A stretch of 62,805 bases of DNA, filler included, from Sphacelaria rigidula (taxonomy: Eukaryota): NCBI GenBank assembly GCA_964200075.2. It is 8 parts of 8 records of this genome, joined end to end, with 100 filler letters (N's around TTAATTAATTAA, not from the genome) between each part and the next. Parts side by side here need not be neighbours in the genome. Positions count along the whole stretch, not along the records: positions 7,865 to 15,627 come from CAXNAA020013528.1; 7 more parts are not named here. One strand, 5' to 3'. Below the pieces are notes generated by a model that saw only the letters and a program-made list of their open reading frames with translations, ran no database searches and had not been told where the DNA came from. A program made the position numbers and the translations under genes. Positions 41 to 58,295 of the stretch are shown here, one piece after another. Position 1 is the first letter of the stretch. Each line of letters starts with the position of its first letter.

Positions 41-2299
41 GCTGGTTGTCTCTTAGACCGTCACAAGCTAGACAGCAAGCACGCTTGCAGGCTGCCTCGG
101 CCGGAATCACCACTGAATTCTCAATCGGGGTTCGATTCTTGTTTGGATTACTGAAGAGTGCTCTGTCGTTCGACACAGTTGACAAATGATGCAGCATGTA
201 TCCATTCGTACCTGGGAAACGCTCTGCCCGTCTGTCAGCTTTAGCCTTCCTGGTGGCACATGTTACTACAATTGCCAGCAAAATCGTGATGGCTAGCTTT
301 CCTTTTGGGATATCAGTTGTAATTTCTTCCATGGAAGGCAGTAAACCGCTCAAAGTCGCCGTGCTTCCGAACCAGATTGATGTACTGTAATCTGATTTTT
401 GGCGGTTTTTCATCGGACGGCGGCGGCAAAGGCAAGGGGGGGGGCATCAGGCAACGCGATTCAGCACCAGCACCCGTCTAGCAATAAATGTGCCGTACAG
501 ACATGTGGACACGCGCTCAGTCTCATAGACCCGCTAGCATGCTGTTGACAATATAGCTCAGAGGTGGGGGGTGGAACATTGGCAGCAATAAGGACTGTGC
601 GGTGATTCAAGCTGGTCAGCACGCGCGTGCTGGCATGTGAGATTGCATCCGGTTGTGCTTGTTTATCACAACCTGGGGCGAATAGCCAGCGGCTTCGGAC
701 AACACAGCATCCGAGCATGTGAGAGGCACGCACCTTCGTGTCCCTTGGCGGAGATTCTTGACTCTCGTCCGATAGCTCCGGCAGCATCATTCACGTACTC
801 TCCAACTGTACGGAATGCAGCCCTGACCAACACAAAAGCAGAAAGCATTTCAAGTCTGATCATTGTTATCATGGTCCAACTGACAATATCAACGCGGTCA
901 TTTGCTGTTCACTCTTGCTGCACCGGCAAACACGCTCAAACCAGTTTCGGCGGCGATGGTTATTCTTGTTTATAACAGGGCGTGCTGTGGCAAGGAAGTG
1001 CTGGGACGCGAAATGTTCAGCTCGCACGCTGTCCCGCTTGCCGAGCAAGTCATTTGCTTTTGAATGTTTTACGACGTCGATATACCTTAACACGGTGTAT
1101 GGGCACTCTGACGTGTTCGCGCGGTTGTCGGCTGGGTTATGGGAGTCCTGCCCTCCTAAACTATGACTCGTGTTTGATCCAGAACAACGAAACCAAACCA
1201 ACGCAGTTTGTGCTGCTACAGCTCTCACTGTTCAGTACGATAGGGGTGGCGAAACTACAATATTCCGCTGCTGCCGGCAGTTCTTGACTTCATGCGGCTA
1301 TCCACCACTGCGCGATACAGACGGTACACATGCGGCAGCGGACGCAATCAGTCATCGCCTTTTTACACGCCATGCGATACAGACGGCACTGCACTGCTGT
1401 ACGTTCGTGGGTAGACACCCATACCGCCGAGACTGCGCTGTATCTTCACGTACATGCTCCTGCAAAAGATGGTTGCTGTACGTGTGATGAACAGCAAGAG
1501 CCAAAATGGAGTGGGCTCTACAGACCCCCCGACAAAACATCGAATCTACCCTATACTCGAAATTATTACACAGAGGGCCAGGTGTGACATCAGCACTGGA
1601 GTGAGCAGCGCCGCCGAAAGGCCGGTGGAGTTGAGGGTGCGTGAAAGCTTACACCCTCTGAGAGTGATCCGAGAGGGCGACCAGCTCATGCAATCAACAA
1701 ACGCTTTTCGTGCCCTTATCCCAGCCGTCACAGCTTTCAGGCTGTTTTCTTGTATACGATATCGTTTGGGATGAGGAATGGAGCCGTGTGGTTCGTCTGG
1801 GCGGGCGCGGTTAGCGGAGCGGGCAAGGCGTTGTGCTGCTGAGTTCCGATCAGAAGTGTATGATGCGGTAGACAGCGACTTATCTGTATTCAACGCGGTA
1901 GCCATACTGATGTGCTGTCTGTCTGCTTCAGAGGTATAGCGTAGTGCTCGCTCGAAAACTACTTGTTGCGACGTACCATGTATACTGATGGGTTCGTCAT
2001 GAAAAGACAGCATCCTATATCACAAGTAGCAGACAATCAGAGGCGACAGCTTTCATGGACGGGGGCAGCTCCAACCCAGCTGGGATGCGTCCGTCCACAC
2101 CCACGACAGTCGTGAGCAAGCTCAACCACTTCATAGCTCCGATACAACAAATGCCTCTCGTCACCCGATACCCTCTCCACAGATCAGATACTACTGCATT
2201 ACCTCATCAAAAGCCGTGTATGGCTCGTTGGTGTGATTGTCCGGCGTATTGTGGACTTACCGCATGGCCCCCTCAACCGTGATGATCATGGAGAGACAC

Positions 2300-2900
2300 A
2301 GAATGAAGCTTATCCCTCCAGCTGGTACTCTGGCAGTATGCTTGCTCTTCACCTTGTTATCACCCACCTGTTGTGCCCAGGCTGCAATATATCCCAAAAC
2401 AAGAGAGTAGAGTTGGGAGAAGTGATCGAGTATGCTTTGTGGTGGCAAGGCGGTTCTCCCAACAGCAAACAACGCGATTCCCAGAGCCCAAAATTGAATA
2501 TTGTGAACGCGATCTTTGTCGGTTACGTTTCGGTCGCATTTTCATGGTCGGTTTGACAAGTCTCTACAGCTTACGAAGGACCAGAGATGTGGCCGTAGTA
2601 TACCGGGATATCAAAGTCAGGCTTTCCAGTATCAAATCTTACAGGATGTGAGGTAAATACTGCTTGTCCACCACCGGATAGTTGTGATGTATGGTGCGGA
2701 GCGACGGTAGAGCAAGTACGGCAAAGTACGAAGAGGGTGGGGTTTGATATATAGTGTCACGTATTTTACCACCCCCTGACAGTATGCGTGGGTGGTTGAT
2801 GATTTTTGTGGGAGTCAATGACCTGGGAAAATACTGTAATCCTAGGATCCTTGCTGAAGAGTTGCTGATGAACTCTATGGTGGAACTTAAAAAGAGCCCC
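2300..2900 (-). pseudogene. Highly degenerate Ty3/gypsy-like reverse transcriptase remnant
   Basis: Minus-strand fragments in different frames, in gypsy RT order: GGGKIR, VVDKQYLPHI*DLILESL, then KIAFTIFNFGLWESRCLLLG (cf. KTAFxTPxGLYEFxVMPFG). Many stops and frameshifts; boundaries approximate. Confidence 0.45.
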
Positions 2901-3270
2901 GACTTCATTCTATGAGCCATAGCGTGTAAACTGATGATGGATACATTTTAAAGCCGGAAGATAAGCAAATGCGGGAAATAGCTGTATGTTTCCAAAAGTC
3001 ATCTTCCATTCCGGTCCTCAGAGCCAACATGGTTGTGGCACCCTATATTACGTTCGTAGTTGTACTGCCAGCGCACATACAATTAGAGCTTTCCACCAGC
3101 TATCATTGAGCCTGGCGCACGCGCGTATGAACTCAAGAATGATGCGATATTAGCTTGTCGTGGTTTCGTCTGTAGGTGTCACGTCAGGCCTTGAGGGCTT
3201 CTATCGTGGTTGCAAGATAGATTTTTTTATACTAGTAACGACCACAGCTGTTCCTATATTTGGAGCTGGG

Positions 3271-3814
3271 CTACGAGCTGGGCCAGACAACAGTAGGTAT
3301 GAATCTCGCTCAGCCGACGCACGGCGCGATATCAGGAGTTGGACGCTGAAATTTTGACGGCAACTTTTAATGATCGAAAGCCAGGAGATCACGTGAGCAG
3401 CAAAGGAAAAAAGAAGAAAAAAAGTTACGGGCATTTGAAATTTCAGCAGAAACAAGATCATGTCATGAGTCTAGGTAAAATGTCTACCTGAAATTCCAGC
3501 TCAAGACTCGTCGAATCGGGCCGTGTGTTCAACATTTTCCGTGACGCTGCTGCACCACTATAAATCAAGTGATGCGAGACTCAAATTATGGAGATCATGA
3601 GTTCGAATCCCGACATATTTTTTTTTCCCGTACGTCGTTAAGGTTATACATTATGCAGTACATTTTTTTCTTCATTCAACGGCGGTGTCGTGTGTTACAC
3701 GGTTGGTCTACACTACTTCATAGTGACATGCTTACATCGGGGTCATTCGGGAAACTGCGAAAGCTGTCGTGTGAGCAACTTTTAGCCGCGCTCTCAAGCT
3801 GGCCCAGCTCGTAG
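3271..3814. mobile_element. Non-autonomous TIR element (MITE), TIR CTACGAGCTGGGCCAG
   Basis: ggctacgagctgggccag at 3269-3286 is the exact reverse complement of 3799-3816. The same terminus recurs at 5269-5284 and 54505-54518. Confidence 0.75.
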
Positions 3815-4066
3815 CCTACAAACGGATTTATGCTCACAGCCATATCTCACCGACAGAGACGAATTTGGTGATGAGCCACATATCTGATTCATCATCAAAT
3901 ACATGAAGGGGAAGATGGCCATCTGCGCAAAAGCCTGGGCCATTTTTTTCTCGTTGAATAAACAATAAACATCGTGTCGGATATGGGGTCTAGACTATAA
4001 CGTCTGCAATACACCGAGCGATATGTACAGCGATTGATGGTTTTTGGCGTAAACATTCAAACACTC

Positions 4067-4135
4067 CAAGGGTCGGACAAATAATGATTCGTCTGAAAAT
4101 TACTTGGTTTTAGAATGATGAGTCGACTCGTGACG
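4067..4135 (+). repeat. Dispersed repeat, also at 62734-62802; both copies end at an assembly break
   Basis: caagggtcggacaaataatgattcgtctg...gatgagtcgactcgtgacg is nearly identical at both sites. One copy runs into the 10-N gap, the other into the window end. Confidence 0.85.
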
Positions 4136-4145
4136 NNNNNNNNNN

Positions 4146-5284
4146 ATTTCAGCGTTGCAACCCAGGTACACGCACCCTAGACACGTGGAATGGCGCAAAG
4201 GCTGCGTGGATACCCCTTGGACCAGCGATCGACTTTTTTCTTCCTTTTGGGCAATCAGGCTGAAGAAATCGTGAATTTGGTGGTTTTGAGTCGTGGTGAT
4301 TTGTCTTAATAACCGTGAAACACTCCCTCGAGCACGGAAAAACGATCGATACCCTCACCTCCAGATAGAACAAAACTGAACACTTCTTTTTTGTCGTGAG
4401 TTGAGGTTCTCATGGAAGTTTGGTCCTCTCGACACCATGACGCCCTTGACCCCTGAAACAAAAGTCAATCAACATGTCCCATTTTATTTCACTTTCTTTT
4501 ATCATGCCCGTGCGATTCTCCACACAAGAAGTCCAATCACAAATTATGACACTGTTTTCGTGAGTTTGAAAGTAGAGGATACGGTTGAGATTGAAAAGTG
4601 GCCAATGAGTGAATGAATCGTTTCAGTTCCAAAATGCTCCTCCGCGAGGCCCGGTATGATTTCTGTAGTATTGAGTGGTGCTACGGTGGGGGTGCACAGT
4701 ATTTTCTGAGGTTAGAATTCTTACAGTACGAGCCCTTTATCTCATCCAAAACACGACTTATGAAAATATATGAGCGTATGCCCGGATTATTTTTATGCCA
4801 ATGTGCTGGGGATATCCCGAATGAATTTGCAAACGGGGGTGTCCTAATCCATATCCTTGTGCATCTAGAATCGTTAGGAGCCCCCGAACCAGACAAGATT
4901 TCGCGCAAAATGTGCACCCCTACCGTAGCATTCTCTCTGGAGATTATCGGGGTGTAATCCTAAACAAAGTGCACTGGGACGTGATCTTTGATTTGTCGCA
5001 CTTTGAACCTCTCCCTTTCCTCGGGACCAGTCAGTGGTCTTTAGGGATCATCCCATCTCTGCCTGGTGAGATGTTTTTCATTGCTTCCGGACGCTTTAGT
5101 AGTGAAATCTTCTGGATCTTGTTTTTGTCCTCAACTCGTGAAATGTCTCAACGTGCCGAAGTATTTCTTTATTCAGAATGCCCTGCTCATGCTTCATACC
5201 AAATTTCAAAGTCCAAATCTCAAAATTGAGGCGAGAATGGGCCTGCAGCCTATAGATCCGCTCCTAGGCTGGCCCAGCTCGTAG
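4146..5284. mobile_element. Partial TIR element of the CTACGAGCTGGGCC family (right end visible)
   Basis: Terminus ctggcccagctcgtag at 5269-5284. The subterminal sequence resembles 54505-54890 in reverse. Left end not seen (N gap), so the left boundary is a guess. Confidence 0.45.
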
Positions 5285-7764: not shown

Positions 7765-7864
7765 NNNNNNNNNNNNNNNNNNNNNNNNNNNNNNNNNNNN
7801 NNNNNNNNTTAATTAATTAANNNNNNNNNNNNNNNNNNNNNNNNNNNNNNNNNNNNNNNNNNNN
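7765..7864. other. Artificial contig spacer
   Basis: 44N-TTAATTAATTAA-44N. Confidence 0.99.
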
Positions 7865-7908
7865 GTGTCGGGGTGCGGGGGGGGGGGGGGGGGGGGGGGT
7901 GGGGGGTG

Positions 7909-7942
<34 letters not shown>

Positions 7943-7949
7943 GGTGAGG

Positions 7950-10900
7950 ATAGAGGATAGTGGGTCACCGTGTATGAGATGCCCCTGTGATGGAGGGTAT
8001 GCATAACTATGTCTGGGCCGACGTTAGAGTTGACTCGACCGTTGCAAATGGTTCAATACTTTCTCATCGAGGGGTGTGGGAGTTTGACCTTACTGTTCCA
8101 GAGCGAGGGATATGAATTTAGATTGAAATACCTCACGTACCCGTGCTAGACTTCAATTTTTCTCTCAAGGTTGCGGCCGGCAATGACCATCCACCACTGG
8201 TTCATCTGTCGGGAGGATGAGCAACCATGATTGACTGGAAGGAATTGGTTTTCCGTCGGGATCGGAGCATGAATACAATCCTAGCTGCTTGCTTCTCGTC
8301 GCCTCCCAGCTCGTTGGAGTTTGACTCACCCGAAAACGAGTTCGCAAATGCTGTGCTCGCCCCTGGCTCCATGCCCTACAACAGCCCCGTCAACATGAGC
8401 CTGCTTCACCAATCGAAAGGCCACTTGAGCGAAGAGCTACTTCGAGAAACGGCCAACGCTACGAGTGTTGGTATGGAGCTTGACGGCAAGCTGGAGCAAT
8501 ACAATAGGTATTCGCTGGCTGAGGACTTACTGCGGCCGATCCCGCGAAAGACAGCTACTCGTGCAGCTGAGAGACTTCAACGCGTGTATGTTGATCTGCG
8601 TGGATCTAGGGGTGTACAGAGCCCAGGATTGATTCGGTGTGATTTCTCGCGAAATATTTTGGTTGTACTTTGCACGCCTGAAACCAGGCACATCAGAAAA
8701 TCTCGAGCAGTTCCTCATATATGTACGAGCAGATGGTATTCCTCGATTCAAGAGTGTGTGCGGAGCGACTTCGGTGAGGAGTTCGTGGGGGTGTTCAGTG
8801 ACCTATGCAGGGAACATTGCATCAAGCACGAGTTCACTCCTGCAAATAGTCCCAAATACATGAGGGTAGCAGAGCGCGGGTTTGCGATTACAGAGGCAGC
8901 GGAAATGACGGCCAGAATAGATGCTAGCCATTTGTGCGACGTTGACATTCAGGAGCGACTGTGGGCTTCAACTATGAATGTTGCGGTCGACACCCTGAAA
9001 CGACCTGTAACAGCTGCAAACCATGGCATGAAGCCCCCAAATGAGTGGTTATACAGTGGGGGTGCACAACGTTTTTCCGAGGCTCTGTACTTTAGGAGCC
9101 TCTCGGCGACAGGCGTCTGGGCCTTATAATAGTGTGTATCCTCAGAAAGCGTTTGGACTAAAAGGTACACCCCTTCCGTAGAATCACTCAAATGGGATGA
9201 TCTACAGGCGAGTCCAGGAAACTCAAGCTGTTTTTTTTCAAAGCCATATAAGAGTCTACGTCGACATCTATGGCCAAGGCACGAGAGTGATGTTACCCCT
9301 TGGCTTCGCCCAAAGTTATCTCCGTGATTCGATGCGAGTACTGACTAAGGGTTGTTACATGATCACAACACTCAGTGTAACATGGCGCCGACTTTCTGTA
9401 TCCATGCAGTAAGAAGTTTCTCCTCCCGCTGGAAGGGATGGGTGCTTCGCTGGGTACAAGTGGAGAGGTCAACTCTGACGATCTGGGTTTCAGTGCTCGT
9501 GACCCATGCACGTGTGAGGTGGGCGGATACCAGCGAAGAGGATCCCGCCAAAGAACAACCTTCGATACAGCACTTGCCGAATTTACAAGCCGAGAGAACA
9601 GTCAGCCTACATCCCCGATTGAAGCATCTCCGGCTGATGCAGTTTCGAGCGGGGAGGATGAGGAACAGCCGGCATAGCTCGATGACGGCGTAGGTAGTGG
9701 CGCGGCGAACATCAACTCCAGCGAGGTGGGTGATGGATCACCCGTGGGCGAACCGCGTGCGCTTGGGCGTACGCCGCAGCAAACTTGCATTCTAGAGCAG
9801 TGGCAGCAGCAACAACAGGAGGGCGCACTGGCACAGTTGACGGACCTGGCTGAGAACATCAACTTCGCGACTTCATCAGTGAATTTCATGGCCCATACAG
9901 GGGAATATGGCGTGGAAAGGGTGCACGCAACAGACGTAGAGCCGGCACGCAAAACGCGCCGTGAAGTACTCGAATCCGTAAACGGAAGACTCTGGGAAGG
10001 GACCAGACAGCGTCATTTCACTGGGTTACTGGGAAAAGAGACTCTGGAGGGGGTAGATCAGCTCCTGGAGAAGCTCAAGGCTCTTGATACGAAGTGGCTG
10101 AATAGTTGAAAGATACGTCAGGATGACTTTTTGCCCAAGCCCAAGACTAGGTTTGTGTGTTTGGGAAACCTGCAGCAGCCTGGTATTGATTCCTACCATA
10201 CCTTCGCCCCGTCCCGGTAAAGTTAAAATGGAAGTGGGGAGAAGAGGAGCTACCGATCGTAGACCAATATGCATACCTTGGTGTAGAGATTTCAAGAAAC
10301 TGTTCGTGAGATGCACACATAAACAAATTAATAGAAAAGGGTAAGGTACAGATAGGAAGGATGAACGTAGTCCTCAGAAACCCGCATCTAGACACCAGGG
10401 TGAACAGATGTATCCTGATGAACGCGATCGTACCAAAGCTGGAATATGCAGAAGAAGTATGTAAGGAGAACGTGAAATTGGTGAAGAAGTTGGAAACAGT
10501 ACAGATGGCAGCTAAGAAGATACGTGGATGTTCGAAAACAAGGAGTGATACGGTATTGAGAGCAGAGTTGGGAATGTACTCACTTAAAACAGAGACATGA
10601 GGAAATTGAGATGGCAATAGAGCGTACAGAACATGCAGAGAAAGAGACTGCCAGCTACAGATGATAAGGCTGTATGGAAGAAAAGTACGAAAGGGCATGC
10701 TGTAAGGTGGGATAGAGAAGTCGAGAAAGTATGGAAGGAGATAGGAGGAAACCAAGACGAAAAACTGTCCATCGGTGAAGGCGCGGGGTACAAGACAAAA
10801 GTAAGGAACATTATGTAAATAAGGGGAAAATGAGCGCTAAGATGCAAGGTAAACGAGAAAGAACACCTGAAGATATACGGGGGGCTGAGAGAGGGGATCG

Positions 10901-11760
10901 GGATGAAAACATATCTGCATGGCCCCATGGACGCGGCGAAACAAATTGAAACTGCGATTTCGGGTGGGGGACCTGGACCTGCCAGAAAGAAGAAAGAGAT
11001 ATACCAGTCGTCGAAAGGAGGAGGAAGCGGATGCACAGAACTGCCCCTGTACCAAGGGAATAGAGAGCAGAAGCCATATGGTGGCAGAATGTGAACTGGA
11101 CAATGAGGAGCGGGACCTGCTAGAGGGGGGTGTGCGGGACGTGAACGAAGGTGGCATGGAAACGTTTGACGCATTAGACAGAAGGAAGAAAACAATGGCT
11201 ATACTATGAGATAGATGGTGGCCATAGACGGCGAAACAGGACGGGGATATAAGATATGTAAAAGGTTATACGTAACGTATGGAAAAAACGCAATGAGCCC
11301 CGGAATGTTGGTGTCTCTAGGAGGAGTAGGAACGGTGCTCCGTCTCTAAAGGGATGCGTGGTCAATGGTCAAACGACTAAGGCAAGCAACAAATGAGTAC
11401 GCCCCGTCCCCCCCCTATCTCCATCTTGCCTCACGCCAAGAGTACTCCCTATGCATGCGTGCCAAAACTACCTTGGGGCGTATCCACTTGGACGTAAAAC
11501 ATGCGTTCAGTTCAGGCACCTCCAGAGGAGATCTACCTGTGCTCAGCGGAAAGCTGGGATGGTTTTTCCGAAGGATACTGATCCAGGCTACAAGCTTCGA
11601 AATACAGAGTACCAACCAAAGCTTATTGTGAACGCCAGCGGAGTACACTGTGGTCCAGCTGATACGTGGAAAGCACCTCAATGCCCTGTTTCCGTTGAAG
11701 ATACACTTTGCTAATTCATCAGCCGATTTCACGCAATCTGGGAGTTTTCAGACCTTCTTG
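7950..11760 (+). mobile_element. pol: Degenerate Ty1/copia pol (protease, GAG-pre-integrase, rve integrase, RT), interrupted by a LINE
   Basis: VANGS..IEGCGSL..HVPVLDFN (protease region); LLHQSKGHLSE (GAG-pre-integrase); RVYVDL, SDFGEEF, CREHCIKHEFTPANSP..VAER (rve; ORF 8227-9129); KALDTKW..KPKTRFV..QQPGIDSYHTFAPS (RT start). After the LINE, HLDVKHAF and PEEIYL resume. Integrase before RT is the copia order. Confidence 0.9.
10216..11399 (+). mobile_element. 5'-truncated LINE (RT C-terminus + CCHC finger) inserted in the copia RT
   Basis: WKWGEEELPIVDQYAYLGVEIS, PKLEYAEEV, LETVQM, LRAELG, KLRFRVG, CPC..ESRSHMVAEC. Flanked by the direct repeat cgccccgtccc at 10205-10215 and 11400-11410. Confidence 0.9.
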
Positions 11761-12295: not shown

Positions 12296-12779
12296 CCCCC
12301 TAAAACGCTGAAGCCACGAGTCAGTACACGACTCAGAATATTGAAAAGCATGGTAACGAACCTCTCTGCCACGGCTCCAGCCTCGAAAAACGTGGTCGTC
12401 GTGTGCCTTTCGTGGTGTGGTTCTCATCAAGTCACGCGCTCCCGGGTTCTTTTCTTCAACCCAAGGGTCAGCGTTTTTTCCCGTGATATTTATCCCAACT
12501 TCTCGACTCTTGAAGCACCTTCCACAACGCCGAAGTGCTCGACCAATCGACGTGGACCACGCGCACCTCGTGGCCCGCGGCGTTTTGCGAATATATTGGG
12601 GGGACTCAGTGTAGGCCCTGGGCTTCTGGGATAAGGACGAGGCGAAAATACGCCGCATGGCACCTGACCGGCACATATCCCATGTTTCCGCGTCACTGAC
12701 AGGGACCCTTGTCGCGAACGACAACTCGATGAAGCGTCTGACTCTTGTGTGCGACAAAAACTTAACCAAACGAAAAATG

Positions 12780-13029
12780 ACTAATGCCGAAATAACCCCC
12801 CCCGAAAAACAATTGCACCGGAGACCGTCCGACAAACCGGCTGCGATCCCACTATTGGGCTCGTTTGCATCAATTCCGCCCACATGAAAGGCGTGTAGCA
12901 GTCCCAAATCAGCTTTAGCGCCCAAATGAGTCGCGTCGTGCAGCACGAAACCAGTTCTAACGGCATTAATGACCATCGCCTCCGTGCACATTTTTGGCCG
13001 GTTCGGGGGGGGGCTATCTCGGCAGCAGT
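12780..13029. mobile_element. 250-bp MITE, copy 1
   Basis: TIRs actaatgccgaaataacccccc / gggggggctatctcggcagcagt. Flanks aaaatg / gaaatg. Second copy at 46408-46655. Confidence 0.85.
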
Positions 13030-15537: not shown

Positions 15538-15627
15538 AAAGGCGGAGGGGGAGGGGGGAGGGGGGGGGGGGGGGCGGGGGTACTTGTTCGTTTCCTGTGG
15601 GGGTGTGCCGTTTACTTCGCCCCCCCC

Positions 15628-15727
15628 NNNNNNNNNNNNNNNNNNNNNNNNNNNNNNNNNNNNNNNNNNNNTTAATTAATTAANNNNNNNNNNNNNNNNN
15701 NNNNNNNNNNNNNNNNNNNNNNNNNNN
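15628..15727. other. Artificial contig spacer
   Basis: 44N-TTAATTAATTAA-44N. Confidence 0.99.
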
Positions 15728-17420: not shown

Positions 17421-20296
17421 GAGTCCGGTTTTTGCGAATTGGGATAATGATTCATGATCCCGAGCCGACAAGGGAGGCCGTAAAGAAGCCAGCAGAAACT
17501 GATTTTCCCCAGCAATAAGCCGAGTTGAAGGACATATTCCGTTGGTCTGCTCATTCTGGCCTTTTCTTTTGCATCGTTTGGTCTACTGAAAAGCTCAACT
17601 CTTGGCCGCGAGGGTAGGTCACCTGCTGACTCGACATTACAATTCACTTGAAAAAAGTATACGTGATCCAGATGGACTACCCGCACCGCGGTCGAAGGGA
17701 CAACGAGCGTCGCTTCGGAACTGTTTTACAGGCCGACAGCCCCGAGACATTCGGGGTTTCCAGTGGGTGGGTGGGGGGCAACTGTTGGCAAAGCAGCCGA
17801 AAAGCTTACCAAGTCAACCATGTGTGCTCGAAAGTTTCCCGCGGAAGATTCTAAGCCAGAAACGAGGCCCGATAGGCGCGGAATGATCATTCTGACCAAT
17901 CATGGGCGTCAGAATGAGCACGTAGTTCCCCTACAGGTGGGCTACAGGTGGACTACTTCGCTGTCCAGCCGTATTTCTCATTTCGGTCATGATGATTCCA
18001 CCGTAGATAAATGAGGACTAACACGAGTAACGTGTTCTTTGTTCTCCTCGTGGTCTGTACCGCCTGTCTAGCGCCTCATGTGTTGCCAGCATAGGAGTCT
18101 GTCTTTCTCCGATAGTCCACCCCCCGAAAGTGGTTGGTTTGGGGAGGAAACATCCACAGGTAAATTCAAATGAAAAACGTCGAGGACAATGAGCAACTGG
18201 TAATTCCACACGCTTGGGTTCGTTTCCGCCAATACCGCCCATACGAAGCGCTTCATGCAGCCTGAAACCAAACAGCAGGTGCCGTATGGCTATTTTCTTG
18301 GTGACAGGTTTTGGGTTGGTTCCGGAGGGGGTCTATCGTAGAAAGATTCAATAGCTTCACACTGTCTGTTGTGTTGTAGTGGAACACTAAGCGGAGGAAT
18401 CAGCAGCATGCAGCAAATTGTGTTCAGTGGAAAGCGATGGCACGCTTACTATTTCTTGCCGTTGTGACCAGCGGAGAAATACCGCACACATACTGACGCT
18501 GCACGCTGTAGAGTGCACGGTCAGGGAGTCTCCACAACCATTTTCTATACGTATAGATGCTCGGCATACTCATGACTATGAAAAAAAGTGTTGTGTGTAC
18601 GTACTCGTAGCGAGAAAAACTGTTCTGAATCCCAAATGTGGCCTAATATAGTCCAACCCAGTCCATCTGCGGGGGGGGATCGCTTTCTAAGGGTTAAGCG
18701 TGAACGGTTTGCGGAAAATACGGACTTCGGTCATTTTTTTCGGCAATCTTCGTGGGCACATGTCACCCCCCCCCCCCTCCCCCCTCCATACTCAGTCATC
18801 TCCGCCAGTCATCTTCATGGCTTCGAGGAATATCTTTGCCGCCACTCTCCCGAGAACCACGAGAAAACCCGCCAGTTATACCCACGGCCAGGTAATCGGG
18901 CACTGTGTTAGCGAAGGGTGTGACAACGCGAACGTCTCGTGTTGCTGTCCAACCTTTAGAGGGTGCGTGCGTCAACTACAATATGGCACGCACTTTCTTT
19001 CCGTTGGAGTTATACTCGAGTTTGCCTCATTTCCATTTGGGATCATCATCACTGTGCTTAGTTCCGTCGTACTGCTGCTGCTGCACTACTGCTGCTCCTC
19101 TGCCGCACATAATTTTGTTTTTCACGGTAAGGTCCGCCGCACGCAAGGGTTTCTACTATTTCAAATTCAAGTCCGGTTTTTACGACTTGTCATAATTTTT
19201 CACGATGCCGAGCCGATTACGTGTTTCGTTTCTGATATACACCATATATAGTGAATGTTCATCCCCCGTGTGCTGCTGCCGCAGCTGCTGTTATGTTGCG
19301 AGTATTGCGCGATGTCTGTGATGTGGGTTTAGAATATTCGGTTAACCATTGTGGTCACGGGTTTGCTGTGTAGTAGTACTGGGCTCATGACTGGGAACGG
19401 TGGTGTGCGTCCGTCACGAGTCTTTCGTGTGTTGCCGGGGGTTTTGGTGGTGGAATAACATTGGGCTCATGGTTGTAGACGGTGGCGTGCGTCTGTGACA
19501 GTCGATGGTGCTGTCTTGACAGGTGTTACTGACGAGAGGAACACTGAGTTCATAGCACGAGTGTCGCCGGGTGTATGTTCGTCGACGGTGGACGGTGTTT
19601 GTTTGCTATCCGTTGCTGTGGGTGGAAAACGTGAACGATTGTCTCCGTGAGTATTCATCAACGCGGAAGGGTGTTCTGTTACCCTTTCCTGTAGGTGGAG
19701 CCATCAAACATTCATGAACCTTTTCTCCACCCCCTATTCCTGAGACAACGTGTGCCACAATACGCACACGGCGGGAATACTGCACTTCACACTATAACCC
19801 GTGCCGTCACACAACGCCCACAACAATGTCCGGTTCTCATATATCTCGACGCGCTGTCAAATCGCAGCTAAGTTTTTTGCAAAACCCATTCGCGTCAGGT
19901 TCGTCTTCCACCCTCAGTGCAACCACATGCCGCTCGCCGCGTTTGGTCGCTTGTCGAAACGTGACGCTCACAAGGAGACACCATCCAGGTACAACGTACA
20001 TCTATTTTGTGTGCCAAAAATATATAAGCATTCACGTGATATCAATAATGGGTGAGGTAGTTGGCATACAGCCCGTCACAGTACTGGGCGAGAAGGTGGG
20101 ACTATGTCGGTCGACTGCCTGCCGCGCAACCTCGTGCTCTGTTGTCATACCACGGGCGCTACTCTGTTCTCCCGGTCGTCAGTGTGTTGCTTCGAAGGAC
20201 ACAACCTTCTACAGCAGAAAAATGTAAAGCTCAGGAATATGGGGCGAGGAGTTACACAAACGCCGAATCGATCGCCCTGCACGACTGCAGAATCAT

Positions 20297-20537
20297 GCTA
20301 CGACAGGGGGGGGAGGGGGGTGTTTGATTCCACGAAAAATTGGGCTCATAGGTACGTCAAACGACCAAACACCATCGCGGTACGCTTGTATTTGGGTAAA
20401 AGCGGCATCAAGCAGTGTAAATGAGCGTTATTTATCGGGAGCAAGCGCGTTCGAACAACTGTTGCTGCTTTAAACGATGATCCTAGTATGAACTTCGTGG
20501 AAGAAAACGGTCCAAAATACCTCCCCTCTATCGTAAC
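20297..20537. mobile_element. ~240-bp MITE with G-rich TIRs, copy 1
   Basis: Ends gctacgacaggggg / cccctctatcgtaac. The body aligns in reverse with 23026-23260. Confidence 0.75.
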
Positions 20538-22070: not shown

Positions 22071-23025
22071 CAACAATTGCCCGGTAATTATGTTTTGGTG
22101 TAGCCGGACTGCAAAATATAGCGCCCGGCCAATGTAATTTGAACCGCATACTCAACACCATGTTGTCCGACCAAAAATGCATTCGGTCACGCAGGCAACA
22201 GCATATTGCCTGACCAATATATATATATATATATATATATCGGGTCGGGCGGGCAAAAACAGTAAATGAATGTATTGAGTCACGCAGGCAGTATCATAAT
22301 GCCTGACGAATATTTACCGGGCGGGGAGAGCGAAAACATACATATTATCCGTCCCATGTGTGCTGGTGACGCACCCATGGCAGTGCAAAAGCCGTGGGTG
22401 TCTCTGGAAGTGGCGATACTCTACGCCTATCTCCACAGATTATCGGGCAAACTGCCGTATGTTGGCAAGCACAAAATTATTGCACACGGATTATTGTTCA
22501 GCGGTCAATATCGAAACCTTGGAGCCAAGCGAATCTGAAAAGCAGGGTAGGCTCCTCTCTGTGGGGTGATGCATTGTATCCGAGATGTGTGTTGGCGAGT
22601 TTCCCTGTTTGGGGATCAAAAAGTGGGTCAAACGTCCCAAAAGTGAACAATCCGTGGGCCAAAAACCTGTGTTATGGCCTAAGCTTCAAATATTTGGGCT
22701 CCTACAAAAAAGAGACCCAGAAACAGAAAAAAGTGCAACTCCTACCGTTGCAGTGCTCGAGAACGAGCGATGGAATTGCGGAAATGCGATCGTCTAGGCC
22801 CACGCCATTCATATTTGGGTGGGTGCACTTGCGCGCGGAAAGGTTCTAAATTTGTATTTCTAGTATCGCAGCGAGGATGGCGTGCGGGAACCATCGGCAC
22901 AAAAATCACTAGAAAGTCGAAGGCTCGTGATGTGCCGCTTGCCATCGGAACGCGTATCCGATATTTGAGCGAACGTCCTGGCACGTCAGACACTCATCAA
23001 GGTAGACGCTTGACATTAGAGTAAT

Positions 23026-23260
23026 GCTACGGCAGGGGGGGGGGGGGTACTTTGGGCCACTTCTTCTACGAAATTCTACTTGCAATCGTCGTTGACAACA
23101 ACAACGGTTGTTCGAACGCGCTTGCTTCCGATAGATAACGCTCATTCATATTGCTTGACACCGCGTTTACTTAAATACAAGCGCACCGCGAGTGTGTTGA
23201 GTCGCCTGAAACACCTGGGAGCCCAGTTTTTTGCGGAATCGGACACCCCCCCCTTATCAC
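23026..23260. mobile_element. ~240-bp MITE, copy 2 (inverted), right TIR cut by a LINE
   Basis: Reverse-complement similarity to 20297-20537. Ends ccccccccttatcac, after which LINE sequence begins. Confidence 0.7.
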
Positions 23261-23490
23261 ACATAAACAAAGGAATAGAAAAGGGTAAGGCACAGATAGG
23301 CAGGTTGGACGTGGTCCTCAGAGACTCGCACCTAGACACTAGGATTAAGAGGTATGTCCTGATGAACGTGATCGTACCAAAGCTAAAATATGCAGGGGAA
23401 GTATGGGAGAGGGACGCGAAGTTGGTGGAGAGGTTGGAAACAGTACAGATGGCAGCAGCTAAGAAGATACTTGGATGCTCGAAAACGACG
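23258..23490 (+). mobile_element. 5'-truncated LINE fragment, same family as 10216-11399, running off the contig
   Basis: HINKGIEKGKAQIGRLDVVLRDSHLDTRIKRYVLMNVIVPKLKYAGEVW..LETVQMAAAKKILGCSKTT matches the 10314-10540 region. Confidence 0.9.
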
Positions 23491-23590
23491 NNNNNNNNNN
23501 NNNNNNNNNNNNNNNNNNNNNNNNNNNNNNNNNNTTAATTAATTAANNNNNNNNNNNNNNNNNNNNNNNNNNNNNNNNNNNNNNNNNNNN
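23491..23590. other. Artificial contig spacer
   Basis: 44N-TTAATTAATTAA-44N. Confidence 0.99.
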
Positions 23591-31353: not shown

Positions 31354-31453
31354 NNNNNNNNNNNNNNNNNNNNNNNNNNNNNNNNNNNNNNNNNNNNTTA
31401 ATTAATTAANNNNNNNNNNNNNNNNNNNNNNNNNNNNNNNNNNNNNNNNNNNN
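31354..31453. other. Artificial contig spacer
   Basis: 44N-TTAATTAATTAA-44N. Confidence 0.99.
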
Positions 31454-34790: not shown

Positions 34791-36010
34791 CTCTGACATT
34801 GCTCCATCCTGGGCCTTTGCTCGCTATTTCCAACTTGTTTGTTTTTCTGGATTTAGACTCGCGATGGTGTTTCAGGGTGAGGAGGTGGGGTGTGGGGTTT
34901 CAAAGGGTGGCGTCGCCTCGAAGTCTGGTGTTCAACCAAACTAGGCGGACCCGTCAGCGATTGAATACCTCAGATGGGGAAGGTAACGGTATGTGGTTCG
35001 ACCTATGGCGGACTATCTTGCGCGTACGTATTTTGTGTCCTTGCCTCACCACCTCCAGACCGCGTGCCGTCATCTATCCTTACCAACTTTCCATGTACCG
35101 TGTACTAGTGCTGCAATTTCCTGCCGTTGCCATCCCGACATTGAGATCTCACCTTCCGGATCCATCACCAGTCTTACCTCGCATAGGTGCTATTCGCGTT
35201 GTTATGCAAAAGGGTCCACTTGTATACTCGGTTCCGCTTCTTGTGGTATTAGTGAAGATCAGCTTAGATATATGCGTGGTTTTGCGTTGGCACGGCAACT
35301 CGGGGAGGGGAGCAGTGTGTCAAGCAATGTGCGCTTGGTTCAAGGAGCCAATGAGACATGTTCACCCCACATGACTTGCAAAGCTTTGACAACGTATCCA
35401 GTAGCTATCCTCGTGGTCTCACGAATGCGTCCTTACCTGTGGGAGATCTGACGCGTCGGAAAGAAATGCCTTCTTTCAGTCACCTGCCCAAATGGGTGAC
35501 TACCTCCACGCTACACGCTTCGCCGCTGTTCCGCGAATCTTTTGAGGGGCACCGCAAGTCAGGCACATTCTGCAGGGGCACTGACTACCCCGTTGACTTG
35601 TTTTGATGGCTGTGGAAAATCAACTGGGGATCGAGAAGCGAGGTCAAGTGCCTGCAGATGTATGTGTATGTGAGCGCAACATTACCTCAATTGTTGGCAA
35701 GTTGAACACCTCGTCCCATGAGTCTACCGCACGCCCCTACCTGATGGTCGTTTGGCGCCTGCTTGACCTCTTGGGCCTCCTACAACGGCATGGCAGCACA
35801 TCTTTCCTGAGATCTTTCGTACTTGTTGACGAAAGGGAGCGGTCACGCATCGTGGAAAGGGAGGCGCCTACTGCTAAATTTTCGAGTGCTCATCATTATT
35901 TTAGAACCGCCGGCAGCTCCTCAGCATCGACTCCCAGGTATCGCTTTTATTTCGTACTCAGATCACCTCTCACCTGCCGTTTCGGCCGTCGTTTCCCCCT
36001 CAGGTTCAAT

Positions 36011-36493
36011 AATTATGTGGGGATTTCAGAAACAGTAGAAGGATTGCAGAAACAGATAGACAAGGCGCAATAATACACTAGGCAATGGAGAGGGCCAGCG
36101 AACAGCGAATGAGAGTGACAGCGAGTGTGAAACTATGCGCGATACTCGTCTGTAACGAGGATGAGAAGAATCCACTGGGGTTCAGGTGGAAGTGGGGAGT
36201 AGGGGAACTGTCGACTCGAGACCATATACATACCTTGGCGTAGAGATCTAAAAAAACGTGCTATAGGGAGAAATGCGGGACGTGAACGAAGGAGGCATAA
36301 AATCGTCTGATGTATTAGATACGTAGAAGGTTTTTGCACAGAGTATGGGATAAGCGTCATGAGCTATGGAAGAAGCGTAGTGCCAGCCGGAATGTTGAAC
36401 GTGTCTCTATCACGAGTAGGAGCGGTGCTCCGTCTCGGAAGGGATGCGTGGTCAATGGTCAAACGACCAAGGCAAGCAACAAGTGGGTACGCC
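36011..36493 (+). mobile_element. Internally deleted LINE copy, same family as 10216-11399
   Basis: YVGISETVEGLQKQIDKA..WKWG..YTYLGVEI, then a jump at ~36255 to 3'-terminal sequence ending gcaagcaacaagtgggtacgcc. Flanks ccccctcaggttcaat (35995-36010) / ccccctcagattcgat (36494-36509). Confidence 0.9.
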
Positions 36494-37956
36494 CCCCCTC
36501 AGATTCGATTGCACCTGTTCTCCCAAAGGGTCTCCTTGCTGGCGATCAGACTGGATGCGTTGGTCAGGGTCTACAGAGCACGATCATTCGCCATTGTGTC
36601 CAGTTCGAGGTCTGTCGGATGAAGTAGGCGTGTCCCCGCCTGCGGAGAGCACTTCGCCTATCTTCGTTCCTTCGCTAACTGTGCGGAATGACCAGTACTC
36701 ACACCTGTTACGGAACCTTGATCGGTGCTCTTCGGGCGGTCTTGGGTCTACCACGTGGAGAGCTACGTGACTCTACTCGACAAAAAAGGTGGCGTTGATG
36801 TGCTGCGAATGGAGTACAGTACTCAAGGGGGTACTTGTAGCTCACCGTTGTTGATGGCCAGAACCTGCTTCGGGTCCGTGGAGAACAGCCCAGCGTCCAG
36901 AGCCCAGCAGGACGCCCGCCAGCTCCCGTTTCTCCGATTCACCCACCTGTTAACCTTACGCTACAACCTTCCCGATATATGTTTACACCATCTTCTTAGA
37001 TGTCTAGCAAACCGCCACTGGCTACGATTGATGGAGGCGCTGTCGATGCCCTATCTCACCCGTTATCCCGAGTTGGCTTTCGGTGCGCTTAGTGGTCATC
37101 CCTGGAGTTTGCCCTCGCAGGTTTCTCAAGACAAATGTACCTGGGGTGTACTTTCGTGCGTCAGGCAATGGCTCTAGCAAAACATTTGCAAAAACAACAC
37201 CATGGATGGGCGGGGCTGTACGCTTGCAACATGAACGTAGCAAAAACACACGGCGAAGATGGCTGTAGAGTAAAATTGCCACGGGGAGTAGAGAATAAAA
37301 CTGGAATTGTAGAAAGAGAGGAGACAAACGGCGGAAAATCAAGAGGTAACATACGGCAGATAGGGGGGCAAAAAGGGGAAGAAAAAAAAACGATTGAGTC
37401 GGTGAAAGAAGAAAATGACAATAATCGTGCACCGTGGGCTATGACTGCTAAATGCAGACGATGAGGGAAAGGGATCACTAGTATAACACAGTTGATAGCG
37501 ACAGAGAAAAAATTCAACAGCAAACAAATACCAGCGGGAGAGGATATGAACGTGGTATAATATGAACCAACGACCATGGGATGACTCGCGGCATTGCCCA
37601 GGCACATTCAGGGCGACAGAAGCGGGCTAAATCGAACAGCAAAAGCGGCAGGGGCGGATGGGGGGTGTAGTATTAGTGCGCGCTCTACCGATGTTCGTAT
37701 GCGATTCCGAAACTTCAAAAATAAATAAAGACACATAAGTAGATAAAAGTAGAATGGAATAGACTAAAACAAAATAGAATAAAATATGGATCAATTGTGA
37801 AGGGAGGAATCAAACGCAACGCTACAGTAGAAGCAGGGTGAACAAAACATAATGGTCAAGGCGTGAGCCCCACATACAATAACTTTTACAATCGATGTGT
37901 CTACTGCTGCCGATCAACGGCACTGGTTGCCCCTGATTTCCCGGCGTGAAGCAACC

Positions 37957-39216: not shown

Positions 39217-39316
39217 NNNNNNNNNNNNNNNNNNNNNNNNNNNNNNNNNNNNNNNNNNNNTTAATTAATTAANNNNNNNNNNNNNNNNNNNNNNNNNNNN
39301 NNNNNNNNNNNNNNNN
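39217..39316. other. Artificial contig spacer
   Basis: 44N-TTAATTAATTAA-44N. Confidence 0.99.
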
Positions 39317-41160: not shown

Positions 41161-42378
41161 TTTATGATGTACCCACCGAAAAGGTTCGAACTGTACTGTA
41201 CTGAACGTGCTTCTGCCCCTCACCTATCCCGCGCCCCCCTGTACTTGATGCGCTTCCCTGGTAGAACACTTGAAAGTGGCACTTAAGTGGCAGGCCAGTA
41301 TGTTGACATCATGCGCATCGTGTAGACACAACACGAGCAGTACCAGAACCCCTCTGAAGAACATATAAATAATGAATACCTACTTGCAGGTCAAGTGGGA
41401 ACTGAAACGGTGTAGTGCTGTGTTTCGGGACGATAACTGATCGTCTTGAGCTTGAGTTTCTGGAAACAAATACGCGCATGCGTTCGAGAAAAATGAAATA
41501 CGTACTACCTGACGCGATGTTATCGGGCGTGTGTTGAGACCCGCAGATGTTCATTACTTACGCATGTGCACATATCAAGTGAAACGCGAATATTCAAATA
41601 ACTGGCTTTCAGAAGATCACGTGAAGCGCCGTTGAGAAAACAGGGTACCCCTGTTCTATTTCCGACAATTGAACATGAACGATCAGAACATATCAGTGGT
41701 TCGAAAAAGTTGTCAAGTACCTGCGAATTTAGGATGGATTTCCCAAATGTGTACTGGTGTTCTGTGGATATAAGATAACTTCCAACTTCGTTGTTCGGTA
41801 GTCCAAAAGTTAAAAGCAACGTGCTCAAGCGCTCGCAGGAGTGATGCAAACCCGGGTATATGACTTGACGTGCCTCATCCTGCTACGTGTCCTTTTCACG
41901 GCCAAGCACAATTTGGAAATGAAATTTGGGCTGATAAGTTTCCAGCAGCACATGTACTCCACGTATGTACTTTATCGGCCCTATAGCTGCTTCCGATACA
42001 CACCACGGTAATGTAGAGGGCGTCCTCGTACGCCTAGAATCCCCGGGCAGTGGGGTTTGTATACGTCAGTGCATATCAAGCATTGTCTTGGTGAATGCAG
42101 GTGTCTCGTGCTGTTCCGAGTGATGCGCAGTAAATGCGATTTGATTGTTTTCAGCCACAAACTTCACACGCTGCCAAATGATGCTCAGGAACCGCTTTTC
42201 GGTGTCTCGGCGATCGTGCTGTCGGCAAAGGTTGGTTCTCGGAGGAGGACGATGCGAAGAGGAAGCTGGCGGCCGACGTGACGAGGAGATATTTCGACCA
42301 AGGGGCTGCAGCAAGCGGTGATCGTACGGTGAAAAGGGCTACGGAGCGGAGTTCTGCTCCGAGCACGCCAGGGCGGAA

Positions 42379-46146: not shown

Positions 46147-46407
46147 GTCTGTAGTGACGGGAATCATACCGTTCTGGCGGGAAATAAACGCAGCGGTAGC
46201 GGTAACTCCGTCCTCCGTCGAGGAGGCGGGGCTGTTGTCGAGGAACCGGACCGAATGGCTCCGACATCTCAACACCCGGGCGACAGCGCCCATCCTCCGG
46301 CGGGACGTTCTGCACAATACGACTCTGCGCCTTCTACCAGACCACCCTATTGCTTACAATTGGATTTTGTTGTTGTGAACCGACACGGGTCTCTTGGGGC
46401 ACTTCAG

Positions 46408-46655
46408 ACTAATGCCGAGATAGCACCCCCACGAAAAATGCACCGGATACCGTCCGACAAACCGGCTGCGATTTCACTTTTGCGCTCGTTTGCAGCAATT
46501 TCTCCCACATGAGAGGCGTGTAGCAGTCCGAATTCAGTTAATACGCCCAAATGAGTCGCGTCGTGCAGCACGAAACCAACTCTAACGGCATTTATGATCA
46601 TCGCCTCCGTGCACTTTTTTGGCCAGTGCGGGGGGGGGGCTATCTCGGCAGCAGT
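46408..46655. mobile_element. 250-bp MITE, copy 2
   Basis: Collinear with 12780-13029. Flanks cttcag / cttcac. Confidence 0.85.
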
Positions 46656-46884: not shown

Positions 46885-46926
46885 GGCGTACTTATTCGTT
46901 GCTTGCCTTAGTCGTTCGGCCATTGA
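46885..46926 (-). mobile_element. Very short 3'-end fragment of the C-tailed LINE
   Basis: Reverse complement reads caatggccgaacgactaaggcaagcaacgaataagtacgcc. A noisier copy with a long C-run lies at 46996-47046. Confidence 0.7.
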
Positions 46927-47079
46927 GACGGGAGCGGGAGTGGGCACGGGAACAGGGGCGGTGGCGACTGGAAAAGAGGAATAGGCAGAGACGTTGGGGG
47001 GGGGGGGGGGGGGACTTATTTTTTGGTTGCCTTGGTTATTTAACCAAAAAAAAAACATCCCTTTGGGGCGGGGGCACAG

Positions 47080-47179
47080 NNNNNNNNNNNNNNNNNNNNN
47101 NNNNNNNNNNNNNNNNNNNNNNNTTAATTAATTAANNNNNNNNNNNNNNNNNNNNNNNNNNNNNNNNNNNNNNNNNNNN
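47080..47179. other. Artificial contig spacer
   Basis: 44N-TTAATTAATTAA-44N. Confidence 0.99.
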
Positions 47180-49983: not shown

Positions 49984-50491
49984 AACGACGGTAACTGCGT
50001 CGAGACATCGGCTGCCGTCTGCAACAAGGGCAAAGGGGTGAGCACTGGGTCAAGCGCGCAGCTGTGGCAGATACACCTTCTACCTGAGCCCCCTAGCAAC
50101 ACAGCGGTACGGTGGGTAGAAGGCCTCACTCGCTCCACTGTACGACTCAGGGCCGCAACGAACACATAAGAAAGGAAGCATCTGACATCGCTGGACCGAT
50201 ATATTATCTCAGTCTTTGGCAAGGCACTGCATGGTACGCAACCAGGTAGTGCAACAGGGGCGTGCCTTTCACAGCAGCTGCAGGTAACCAAGTGCTGGGA
50301 GTAACGTAGCAATCAAGCACTTGTGGCGCACTCCTCTCACCTTCAATTGTACTCACGCCTCCCTCTGAGACATCAGCTACCACCATACAACATTTGTCGG
50401 CACCCATTATTCTGCAAGCGTAGAGAGCGACAAAAAGAAAACGTTTGTACGCGTAAATCGATGGATTCAGGTGCAGCGCAGACTCTCTTAA

Positions 50492-54891: not shown

Positions 54892-54942
54892 GGAGGGGGG
54901 GGGGGCGTACTCATTTGTTGCTTGCCTTAGTCGTTAGACCAT
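54892..54942 (-). mobile_element. 3' end of the C-tailed LINE at the contig end
   Basis: Reverse complement reads atggtctaacgactaaggcaagcaacaaatgagtacg(c)11tcc. Confidence 0.9.
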
Positions 54943-55042
54943 NNNNNNNNNNNNNNNNNNNNNNNNNNNNNNNNNNNNNNNNNNNNTTAATTAATTAANN
55001 NNNNNNNNNNNNNNNNNNNNNNNNNNNNNNNNNNNNNNNNNN
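54943..55042. other. Artificial contig spacer
   Basis: 44N-TTAATTAATTAA-44N. Confidence 0.99.
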
Positions 55043-55116
55043 TATTAGGTTTTGGGTGGGCAAAGGGTTCGACTTTTCGCTGGGGCTGGGGGTGGGGGGG
55101 GCGTTGTTTGTGATTT

Positions 55117-55153
<37 letters not shown>

Positions 55154-55311: not shown

Positions 55312-55391
55312 GGGGGGGGAGGGGGTGTACGCATTTGTTGCTTACCTAAGTCATTCGACCATAGACCACGCATCCCTTCGAGACGGAGCAC
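55312..55391 (-). mobile_element. 3'-end fragment of the C-tailed LINE
   Basis: Reverse complement reads gtgctccgtctcgaagggatgcgtggtc..gcaacaaatgcgtacaccccctcccccccc. Confidence 0.85.

Positions 55392-58257: not shown

Positions 58258-58295
<38 letters not shown>

Follow-up and report, generated by a model that had tools for sequence, protein, structure and literature searches.

The stretch of DNA analysed here, referred to as the window, comprises 62.8 kb (62,805 nucleotides) from the brown alga Sphacelaria rigidula (assembly GCA_964200075.2) and contains a degenerate copy of a long interspersed nuclear element (LINE; copy A), which lies within a host element that is itself degenerate. The window consists of eight pieces of ~7.76 kb, with a 100-base linker (44 N, 12-base spacer, 44 N) between each and the next, at 7765-7864, 15628-15727, 23491-23590, 31354-31453, 39217-39316, 47080-47179 and 54943-55042; LINE copies touching a linker are cut, and the pieces need not be genomic neighbours. 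The coordinates of copy A, its flanks and the further LINE copies (B to F) are compiled in Table 1.

LINE 3' ends and target sites in the window

Copy A is decayed, with 13 in-frame stops and at least one frameshift in what is left of its open reading frame (ORF), and is flanked by an exact direct repeat of 11 bp, CGCCCCGTCCC, the sole 11-mer of its 3' flank that is also found upstream. The host-frame codon begins at repeat base 11 at both 10215 and 11410, and as the codon phase is identical on both sides, excision gives ...YHTFAPSPPYLHL... and restores the host reading ...KTRFVCLGNLQQPGIDSYHTFAPS/PPYLHL... across the insertion point. An earlier reading of the window, made without database searches (the sequence-only reading), had proposed this repeat, the restoration of an interrupted host frame upon removal of the LINE, and a C-rich target overlapping the CGCCCC end of the element. 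All three were confirmed, with 6 nt common to the target and the family 3' end. The same reading had identified the host frame as a copia reverse transcriptase (RT), and here the frame restoration held while the copia identity remained weak, both Pfam matches being sub-threshold. The rve match (8221-9126) reached E=0.11 and 13.2 bits, under the Pfam cut-off of 32.6, and the RVT_2 match (10068-10211; profile positions 11-57) reached E=0.093 and 12.8 bits, under the cut-off of 31.6, and ended one residue short of the insertion point. The right flank of copy A gave no Pfam matches, a relative search with the integrase-like frame found none, and a paralogous empty site for the host element was looked for in the window and not found. 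The flanks are probably those of a decayed copia-type element, as suggested by these two faint matches.

The 3' end of the LINE family reads ...AAATGAGTACG and is followed by a C-run in 10 of the 11 ends compared (five of six in the window and all five in outside contigs). The motif GCAAGCAACAAATGAGTACG had five matches in the window (up to 3 mismatches) vs none in 100 shuffles, and blastn with copy A added a diverged sixth 3' end at 46997-47077 (minus strand) as well as a 5' part at 23258-23486 (plus strand). Following ACG, the tail is CCCCGTCCCCCCCC in copy A (direct reading), C7 in copy B, C11 in copy D and C18 in copy F; the tail of copy E, CCCCCTCCCCCCCC, is preceded by ACA instead. Outside the window, alignment A1 showed tails of C8 (contig L001), C10 (L002), CCTCCCCCCC (L003), C13 (L005) and C9TC9 (L008). 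For comparison, CCCC is found in 2.6-3.5% of 12-nt windows in this sequence. An A-run was seen at none of the 11 ends in the alignment of window and outside ends, neither as an L1-like poly(A) tail nor as the start of a target-site duplication (TSD). The claim of C-rich 3' ends lacking poly(A), originally made for four positions, was thus extended to five of the six window ends, one beyond those listed, with a single exception (copy C). The run is always C on the LINE sense strand, is placed between the LINE end and unique flank, and recurs at LINE ends in at least five other assemblies of different source. Marine metagenome contigs contained identical LINE 3' ends, as did contigs of algal contamination within bacterial bins, and the 3' motif had no matches among the viral contigs searched.

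Copy B carries a 9-bp TSD, CCCCCTCAG, and its 3' junction reads ACG-CC-CCCCCTCAG. The ACG+CC is not in the 5' repeat, and this excess on the 3' side indicates that at least CG+CC of the run arrived with the element. Both complete TSDs of the window (11 bp in copy A and 9 bp in copy B) are C-led and preceded by TT, i.e. both empty sites read TT/C..., and C4 or more was found within 12 nt upstream of three of four 5' junctions vs ~3% background. For the copy cut by the piece end at 23490, C8 + TTAT just upstream of junction 23257/23258 may be a further C-led TSD; the position of this junction is uncertain, as tblastn gives a weak extension further upstream. LINE 5' ends vary (ORF2 residues ~964, ~917, ~995 and ~1251), and a shared 3' end, varied 5' truncation and TSDs of 9 and 11 bp together are the hallmarks of a LINE that inserts by target-primed reverse transcription. 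Three of the copies, C, E and F, are short units. Copy E matches the LINE over its last ~80 nt alone, with upstream sequence unlike the LINE, and may be a non-autonomous partner, judging from this boundary.

Table 1. LINE copies, target sites and associated features (positions count along the whole window)
Feature	Position	Strand	Evidence or remark
Degenerate host element: integrase-like frame, then copia-type RT start	8221..10204	+	weak Pfam matches, order integrase then RT
Left TSD of copy A, CGCCCCGTCCC	10205..10215	+	exact 11-mer repeated at 11400-11410
LINE copy A, 5'-truncated, degenerate, ORF2 residues ~964-1360	10216..11399	+	tblastn with protein P0004, read-through translation, homologues E=6e-83
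Conserved 3' module of ~65 nt (TGCTCCGTCTC...GAGTACG): last ~20 codons, TGA at 11394-11396, 5 more bases	11336..11401	+	alignment A1
Right TSD of copy A, CGCCCCGTCCC	11400..11410	+	first 6 bases CGCCCC = the family's own CG(C)n end
Remainder of pre-existing target C-run	11411..11415	+	direct reading; beyond the repeat, host frame continues
LINE copy cut by piece end, 5' junction 23257/23258	23246..23490	+	blastn, 84% over 229 nt
Left TSD of copy B, CCCCCTCAG	35995..36003	+	9-mer repeated at 36494-36502
LINE copy B, 5'-truncated at ORF2 residue ~917, internal deletion, ends ...GGGTACG + CC before TSD	36004..36493	+	tblastn, blastn, sequence
Right TSD of copy B	36494..36502	+	repeat of CCCCCTCAG
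Short 3' unit (copy C), without C-run after ACG	46887..46926	-	motif match, blastn, alignment
Diverged 3' unit (copy F) + C18, cut by piece end	46996..47079	-	blastn
3' unit (copy D), C11 tail, cut by piece end	54895..54942	-	motif match
3' unit (copy E), tail CCCCCTCCCCCCCC	55312..55391	-	blastn, alignment
Matches to motif GCAAGCAACAAATGAGTACG	11382-11401, 36472-36491	+	up to 3 mismatches
Matches to motif GCAAGCAACAAATGAGTACG	46887-46906, 54906-54925, 55326-55345	-	up to 3 mismatches
C/G runs, examples	7877-7941, 15560-15574, 55118-55150, 58259-58294		

Intact relatives, the conserved 3' module and catalogued RTE-X elements

A read-through translation of copy A (stops as X) identified four homologous proteins, P0002-P0005 (E<=1e-77), two of which have Exo_endo_phos and RVT_1 domains in the precomputed Pfam annotation (P0003, 1328 aa; P0004, 1360 aa). 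All four end in ASNK (...TKASNK-stop), with the last ~20 residues near-identical, which confirms the stop noted by the sequence-only reading as the true ORF end, with the TGA 5 nt before CG(C)n. The element therefore has almost no 3' untranslated region (UTR). The 5259-bp contig L005 holds a 1382-aa frame without stops (116-4261, minus strand) that is 88% identical to P0004 and matches RVT_1 (6.7e-32), Exo_endo_phos (8.1e-11) and Exo_endo_phos_2 (1.4e-07). An RT of the non-LTR type (LTR, long terminal repeat) and an apurinic-type endonuclease (EN) are thus combined in one ORF in L005, P0003 and P0004, as is characteristic of LINEs, and the ORF carries a C-terminal Cys/His motif (CPCG...H...C). 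In L005 one open frame holds the EN and then the RT, and more than 1 kb of sequence lies upstream of it without the 5' junction being reached. Within the window, Pfam analysis of 25 frames revealed no LINE domain, only EsV-1-7 and FNIP repeats.

The nearest named relative is P0005 from Ectocarpus sp. CCAP 1310/34, which has the same C-terminal ~500 residues and so locates the family in an Ectocarpus strain. The P0005 gene model (1927 aa) is a chimera in which a gypsy-type polyprotein with PF08719 is joined to this C-terminal part (~500 residues) of the LINE ORF, and probably represents a LINE insertion fused into one gene model; its PF08719 is presumably the NADAR domain that the Ectocarpus paper reports in Gypsy Pol. 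Contigs L005 (contig 43 of G001) and L008, both with eukaryotic LINE copies, are filed under bacterial metagenome-assembled genomes and are evidently mis-binned algal DNA. G001 has a single copy of the 3' motif.

Conservation is concentrated in the ~65-nt module at the 3' end. In copy A, 63 of 65 bases of the module equal those of L005 vs 70-80% in three upstream bins, and overall, identity to L005 is 95-97% over the last 65 nt vs 70-90% in the three upstream bins in three of five copies (copy A, L002 and L003); L001 is near-identical to L005 over the full length compared. A search of Rfam returned no families in the window. Among the contigs of DNA run X1, 36149 matched positions 1-700 of L005. 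Past the 13-nt run, loose ends fell into groups of which the largest were G-rich on the opposite strand (419+107+106 contigs), indicating that the C-run often exceeds 13 nt, and a further 81+69+94 contigs leave the LINE, again into G-runs, exactly where the 65-nt unit starts on its 5' side (positions 171-173). Among the joints listed for this run, some jump back 74-81 nt (6, 2, 3 and 3 contigs), which points to [unit+(C)n] repeated in tandem, in at least one DNA run. Unit-only copies are common, and the copy number of the family is very high. Copy E, with its match of ~80 nt, and the hundreds of X1 contigs diverging at the 5' edge of the unit have the form of non-autonomous partners, none of which was delimited completely. 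In runs X17 and X20, RNA contigs span the 3' unit before continuing into G-rich or unrelated sequence, and the loose ends listed for them past the C-run have no poly-T/A.

Elements of this description are already on record. In Ectocarpus, RTE-X elements are the most abundant families, with 16,418 copies, RTEX-N1 alone exceeding 6000 (Genome Biol 2025;26:320, PMC12477816). According to Supplementary Material 3 of that paper, RTEX-1_Ec32 (5867/5511 bp) has a 'single EN-RT ORF; (C)n 3'' and RTEX-2_Ec32 (5582 bp) has '(C)n termini/TSD', with the TSD of both given as 'C-rich', and the non-autonomous partners RTEX-N1/N2 share the 3' 60-100 bp, have C-rich TSDs and 'can be present in tandem'. The RTE-1/2 elements of the same genome end in (CAA)n (PMC12477816). 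The family described here resembles RTEX-1/2_Ec32 and RTEX-N1/N2 in its single EN-RT ORF, (C)n 3' end (10 of 11 ends), C-rich TSDs (both complete ones), tandem short units (putative non-autonomous partners) and high abundance, and L005, which spans at least 5.15 kb and still lacks the 5' end, compares with 5.5-5.9 kb for the catalogued elements. Unlike those entries, the window copies are old and broken. As far as the catalogue entries describe them, every feature observed here agrees with RTEX-1/2_Ec32, the match being one of description and not of consensus alignment. The novelty claimed by the sequence-only reading is refuted by these entries, which already list, for RTEX-1/2_Ec32 and their partners, both the 3' (C)n and the C-rich TSDs, and the window LINE is genuine and probably an unremarkable representative of this catalogued group. 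The main text of PMC12477816 neither takes up the tail nor offers a mechanism, and 'C-rich' does not occur in it. A literature search for poly(C)-tailed LINEs, RTE-X tails and their mechanism returned only the Ectocarpus supplement, in a search where parentheses are unsearchable and 'poly(C)' may be missed; a mechanistic account of EN specificity and tail requirement was not found in the literature searched, the catalogue note standing alone.

Homopolymer runs and other repeats of the window

The window contains 26 C/G runs of at least 7 nt, up to C36, of which five follow a LINE 3' unit and three lie in a repeat of ~250 bp resembling a miniature inverted-repeat transposable element (MITE). 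The two copies of this repeat (12779-13029 and 46407-46655) are 88% alike and have terminal inverted repeats (TIRs; ACT..TGCCGAGATAG) followed inward by a C-run and a G-run, so that some homopolymers of the window belong to a DNA transposon and not to the LINE. A marginal match to the LINE 3' unit before the C-run at 12796 was rejected, as this run is part of the TIR of the MITE-like repeat. A 12-13-nt motif (TAATGCTACGRCA) adjoins a G-run at 20293-20313 and 23022-23047 in surroundings that are otherwise unlike; on the other strand these sites read as a C-run followed by a fixed start and may be the 5' end of another element with C-rich TSDs.

Three further repetitive features were observed. 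At 42322-44763 (plus strand), an 814-aa frame contains at least 16 EsV-1-7 cysteine-rich repeats (Pfam 6.6e-218) within a 114-bp tandem array of 14-15 units, and at 48325-50049 (minus strand) a 575-aa frame consists of FNIP repeats (5.6e-82) with a 66-bp period. These two frames, the Ectocarpus relative of the LINE and the identical LINE 3' ends in marine and algal contaminant contigs point to a brown alga, or something closely related, as the most likely source. Between 52183 and 54440, palindromic units of ~40 bp (TACCCAAA.TTTGGGTAGAGTA...) cluster in short tandem arrays.

Proposed priming at G-runs and the origin of the C-run

Taken together, the sequence at 10216-11399 is very likely a dead, 5'-truncated non-LTR retrotransposon of brown algae, of the catalogued RTE-X kind, with one ORF of ~1330-1380 aa and an end in CG(C)n, for which we infer priming of a C-tail by a nicked G-run. 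The protein would bind the conserved ~65-nt 3' module of its own RNA, which is common to the non-autonomous partners, and its endonuclease would nick the bottom strand at 5'-(G)n^AA-3', corresponding to TT^C(n) on the top strand, as at both empty sites. The freed G-run would then pair with the templated C-run of the RNA and prime reverse transcription, a second nick following 9-12 bp downstream. The C-run itself would be copied from the donor locus, its length shifting by slippage and by the annealing point, and would require no special tailing of the RNA. Such priming fits the junctions, and pairing of a nicked G-run strand with the C-tail would be expected to leave an overlap like the CGCCCC of copy A. 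In LINEs of the RTE, CR1 and UnaL2 types, a genomically templated simple-repeat tail is present and reverse transcription starts from an internal site beside a recognised 3' module. Of the interpretation offered by the sequence-only reading, a LINE family with a C-run at its 3' end and C-led TSDs was upheld; besides novelty, the proposed unusual 3' processing fell away, because 3' UTRs of RTE-type LINEs are reportedly usually short and end in a templated simple repeat.

The comparison with L1 shows several parallels, as in both cases the TSD and the tail start with the same base, target and tail have microhomology, 5' truncation is frequent and TSD length varies. The empty sites read TT^C... 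here vs TT^AAAA for L1 on the same strand (L1 nick TTTT/AA, with poly(A) primed by oligo-T). Unlike L1, the base is C and not A (no A-run at any of the 11 ends), the element has a single ORF and belongs to another clade, and its tail is probably templated rather than produced by polyadenylation. RTE clade LINEs, said to have been described by Malik and Eickbush in 1998, reportedly encode an apurinic-type endonuclease and an RT in a single ORF, have a simple repeat at the end of a very short 3' UTR, and give rise to SINE-like (short interspersed nuclear element-like) partners with a common 3' end. The present family shows the first two traits and probably the third; the C homopolymer, the longer ORF (~1360 aa) and the C-terminal Cys/His motif set it apart from them. 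The eel pair UnaL2/UnaSINE1, reportedly a stringent LINE/SINE pair (Kajikawa and Okada, 2002), is likewise said to have a conserved ~60-nt 3' module, present in LINE and short partners alike, ahead of a short, slippage-prone terminal repeat that initiation requires. Unlike in that pair, a stem-loop is unsupported here (z=-0.54), the module is coding and the repeat is mononucleotide. The R1-clade elements Waldo, Mino, Kibi, Koshi and Dong are also said to insert into simple repeats resembling their own 3' ends; they differ from the present family in clade and in that the targets here are short C-runs in ordinary DNA (e.g. a copia RT) and not only long microsatellite arrays.

Several observations weigh against this interpretation. 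Copy A alone proves no tail, because the target could supply every C after GAGTA, and copy C (46887, minus strand) has CC and then GCGG in place of a C-run, the one such case among 11 ends. The 5' junction of L008 (348/349), one of four, has neither a C-run nor a recognisable TSD, and L008 shows no extra conservation of its 3' end (59/65 vs 61/65). The 105-nt 3' end folds no better than shuffles, so that a structured recognition element is unsupported by folding energy, and the TT^C(n) nick site derives from two complete TSDs only. The RNA runs are in the form of contigs, a form unable to show transcript 3' ends, and the name RTE-X is taken from the Ectocarpus catalogue (PMC12477816) and not from an RT phylogeny of the copies studied here.

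An alternative explanation, which we consider unlikely, is that the element is tailless, ending in ...GAGTA(CG), and that its endonuclease is specific for existing C/G homopolymers, much as R1-clade LINEs with microsatellite specificity are for their own repeats, all of the C being target DNA. Copy A agrees with this view, as CGCCCCGTCCC covers every base after GAGTA and the target C-run extends past the repeat, and so does the abundance of C/G runs in the window, only 5 of 26 following a LINE unit and C-tracts existing independently in the MITE TIRs. However, the ACG+CC beyond the 5' repeat at the 3' junction of copy B argues mildly for C brought in by the element, the runs after the unit reach 13-18 nt in the copies examined and exceed 13 nt in X1, and the Ectocarpus catalogue, in its relevant entries, counts '(C)n 3'' as part of the consensus (PMC12477816). 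The two views are nearly equivalent because donor transcripts include the downstream C-run; only a cut of the RNA precisely at ACG would set them apart.

Post-transcriptional C-tailing, in which the RNA would be cut after ...GAGUACG and a nucleotidyl transferase of the host or the element would add oligo(C), could account for tail lengths varying from 7 to more than 18 and for a stop codon 5 nt ahead of the tail, yet we regard it as highly improbable: nothing in the data requires it, templating and slippage reportedly explain the variable tails of other LINEs, and interrupted tails (CCCCGTCCCCCCCC, CCTCCCCCCC, C9TC9) resemble inherited or target DNA rather than a fresh homopolymer. An origin of the C/G homopolymers in poly-G errors of sequencing or assembly is scarcely credible despite long G/C runs beside piece ends (7877-7941, 15560-15627 and 55094-55150), because the runs are strand-constant and lie between the LINE and unique flanks, recur as sense-strand C in the other assemblies and form part of exact TSDs.

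As discovery, the finding is of small value, since both the (C)n end and the C-rich TSDs had been noted before by the curators of the Ectocarpus library. The existing record is one line in a supplementary table, and the proposed priming logic, with a G-run primer, a TT^C(n) nick and a coding 3' module, would be easy to test in a family with thousands of copies and intact members. If G-run/C-tail priming is correct, it would be a mononucleotide, non-A counterpart of the priming of L1 poly(A) by oligo-T. Somewhat more speculatively, and with the balance tilting against it, the family may form a self-feeding system in which the endonuclease cuts (G)n^AA, insertions leave C-tracts and later copies land in earlier tails; if true, the 65-nt unit with its (C)n would come to lie in tandem, and many long C/G homopolymers of brown-algal genomes would trace back to such insertions. 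The family accounts for part of the C/G homopolymer tracts that break brown-algal assemblies and that can be mistaken for poly-G sequencing artefacts.

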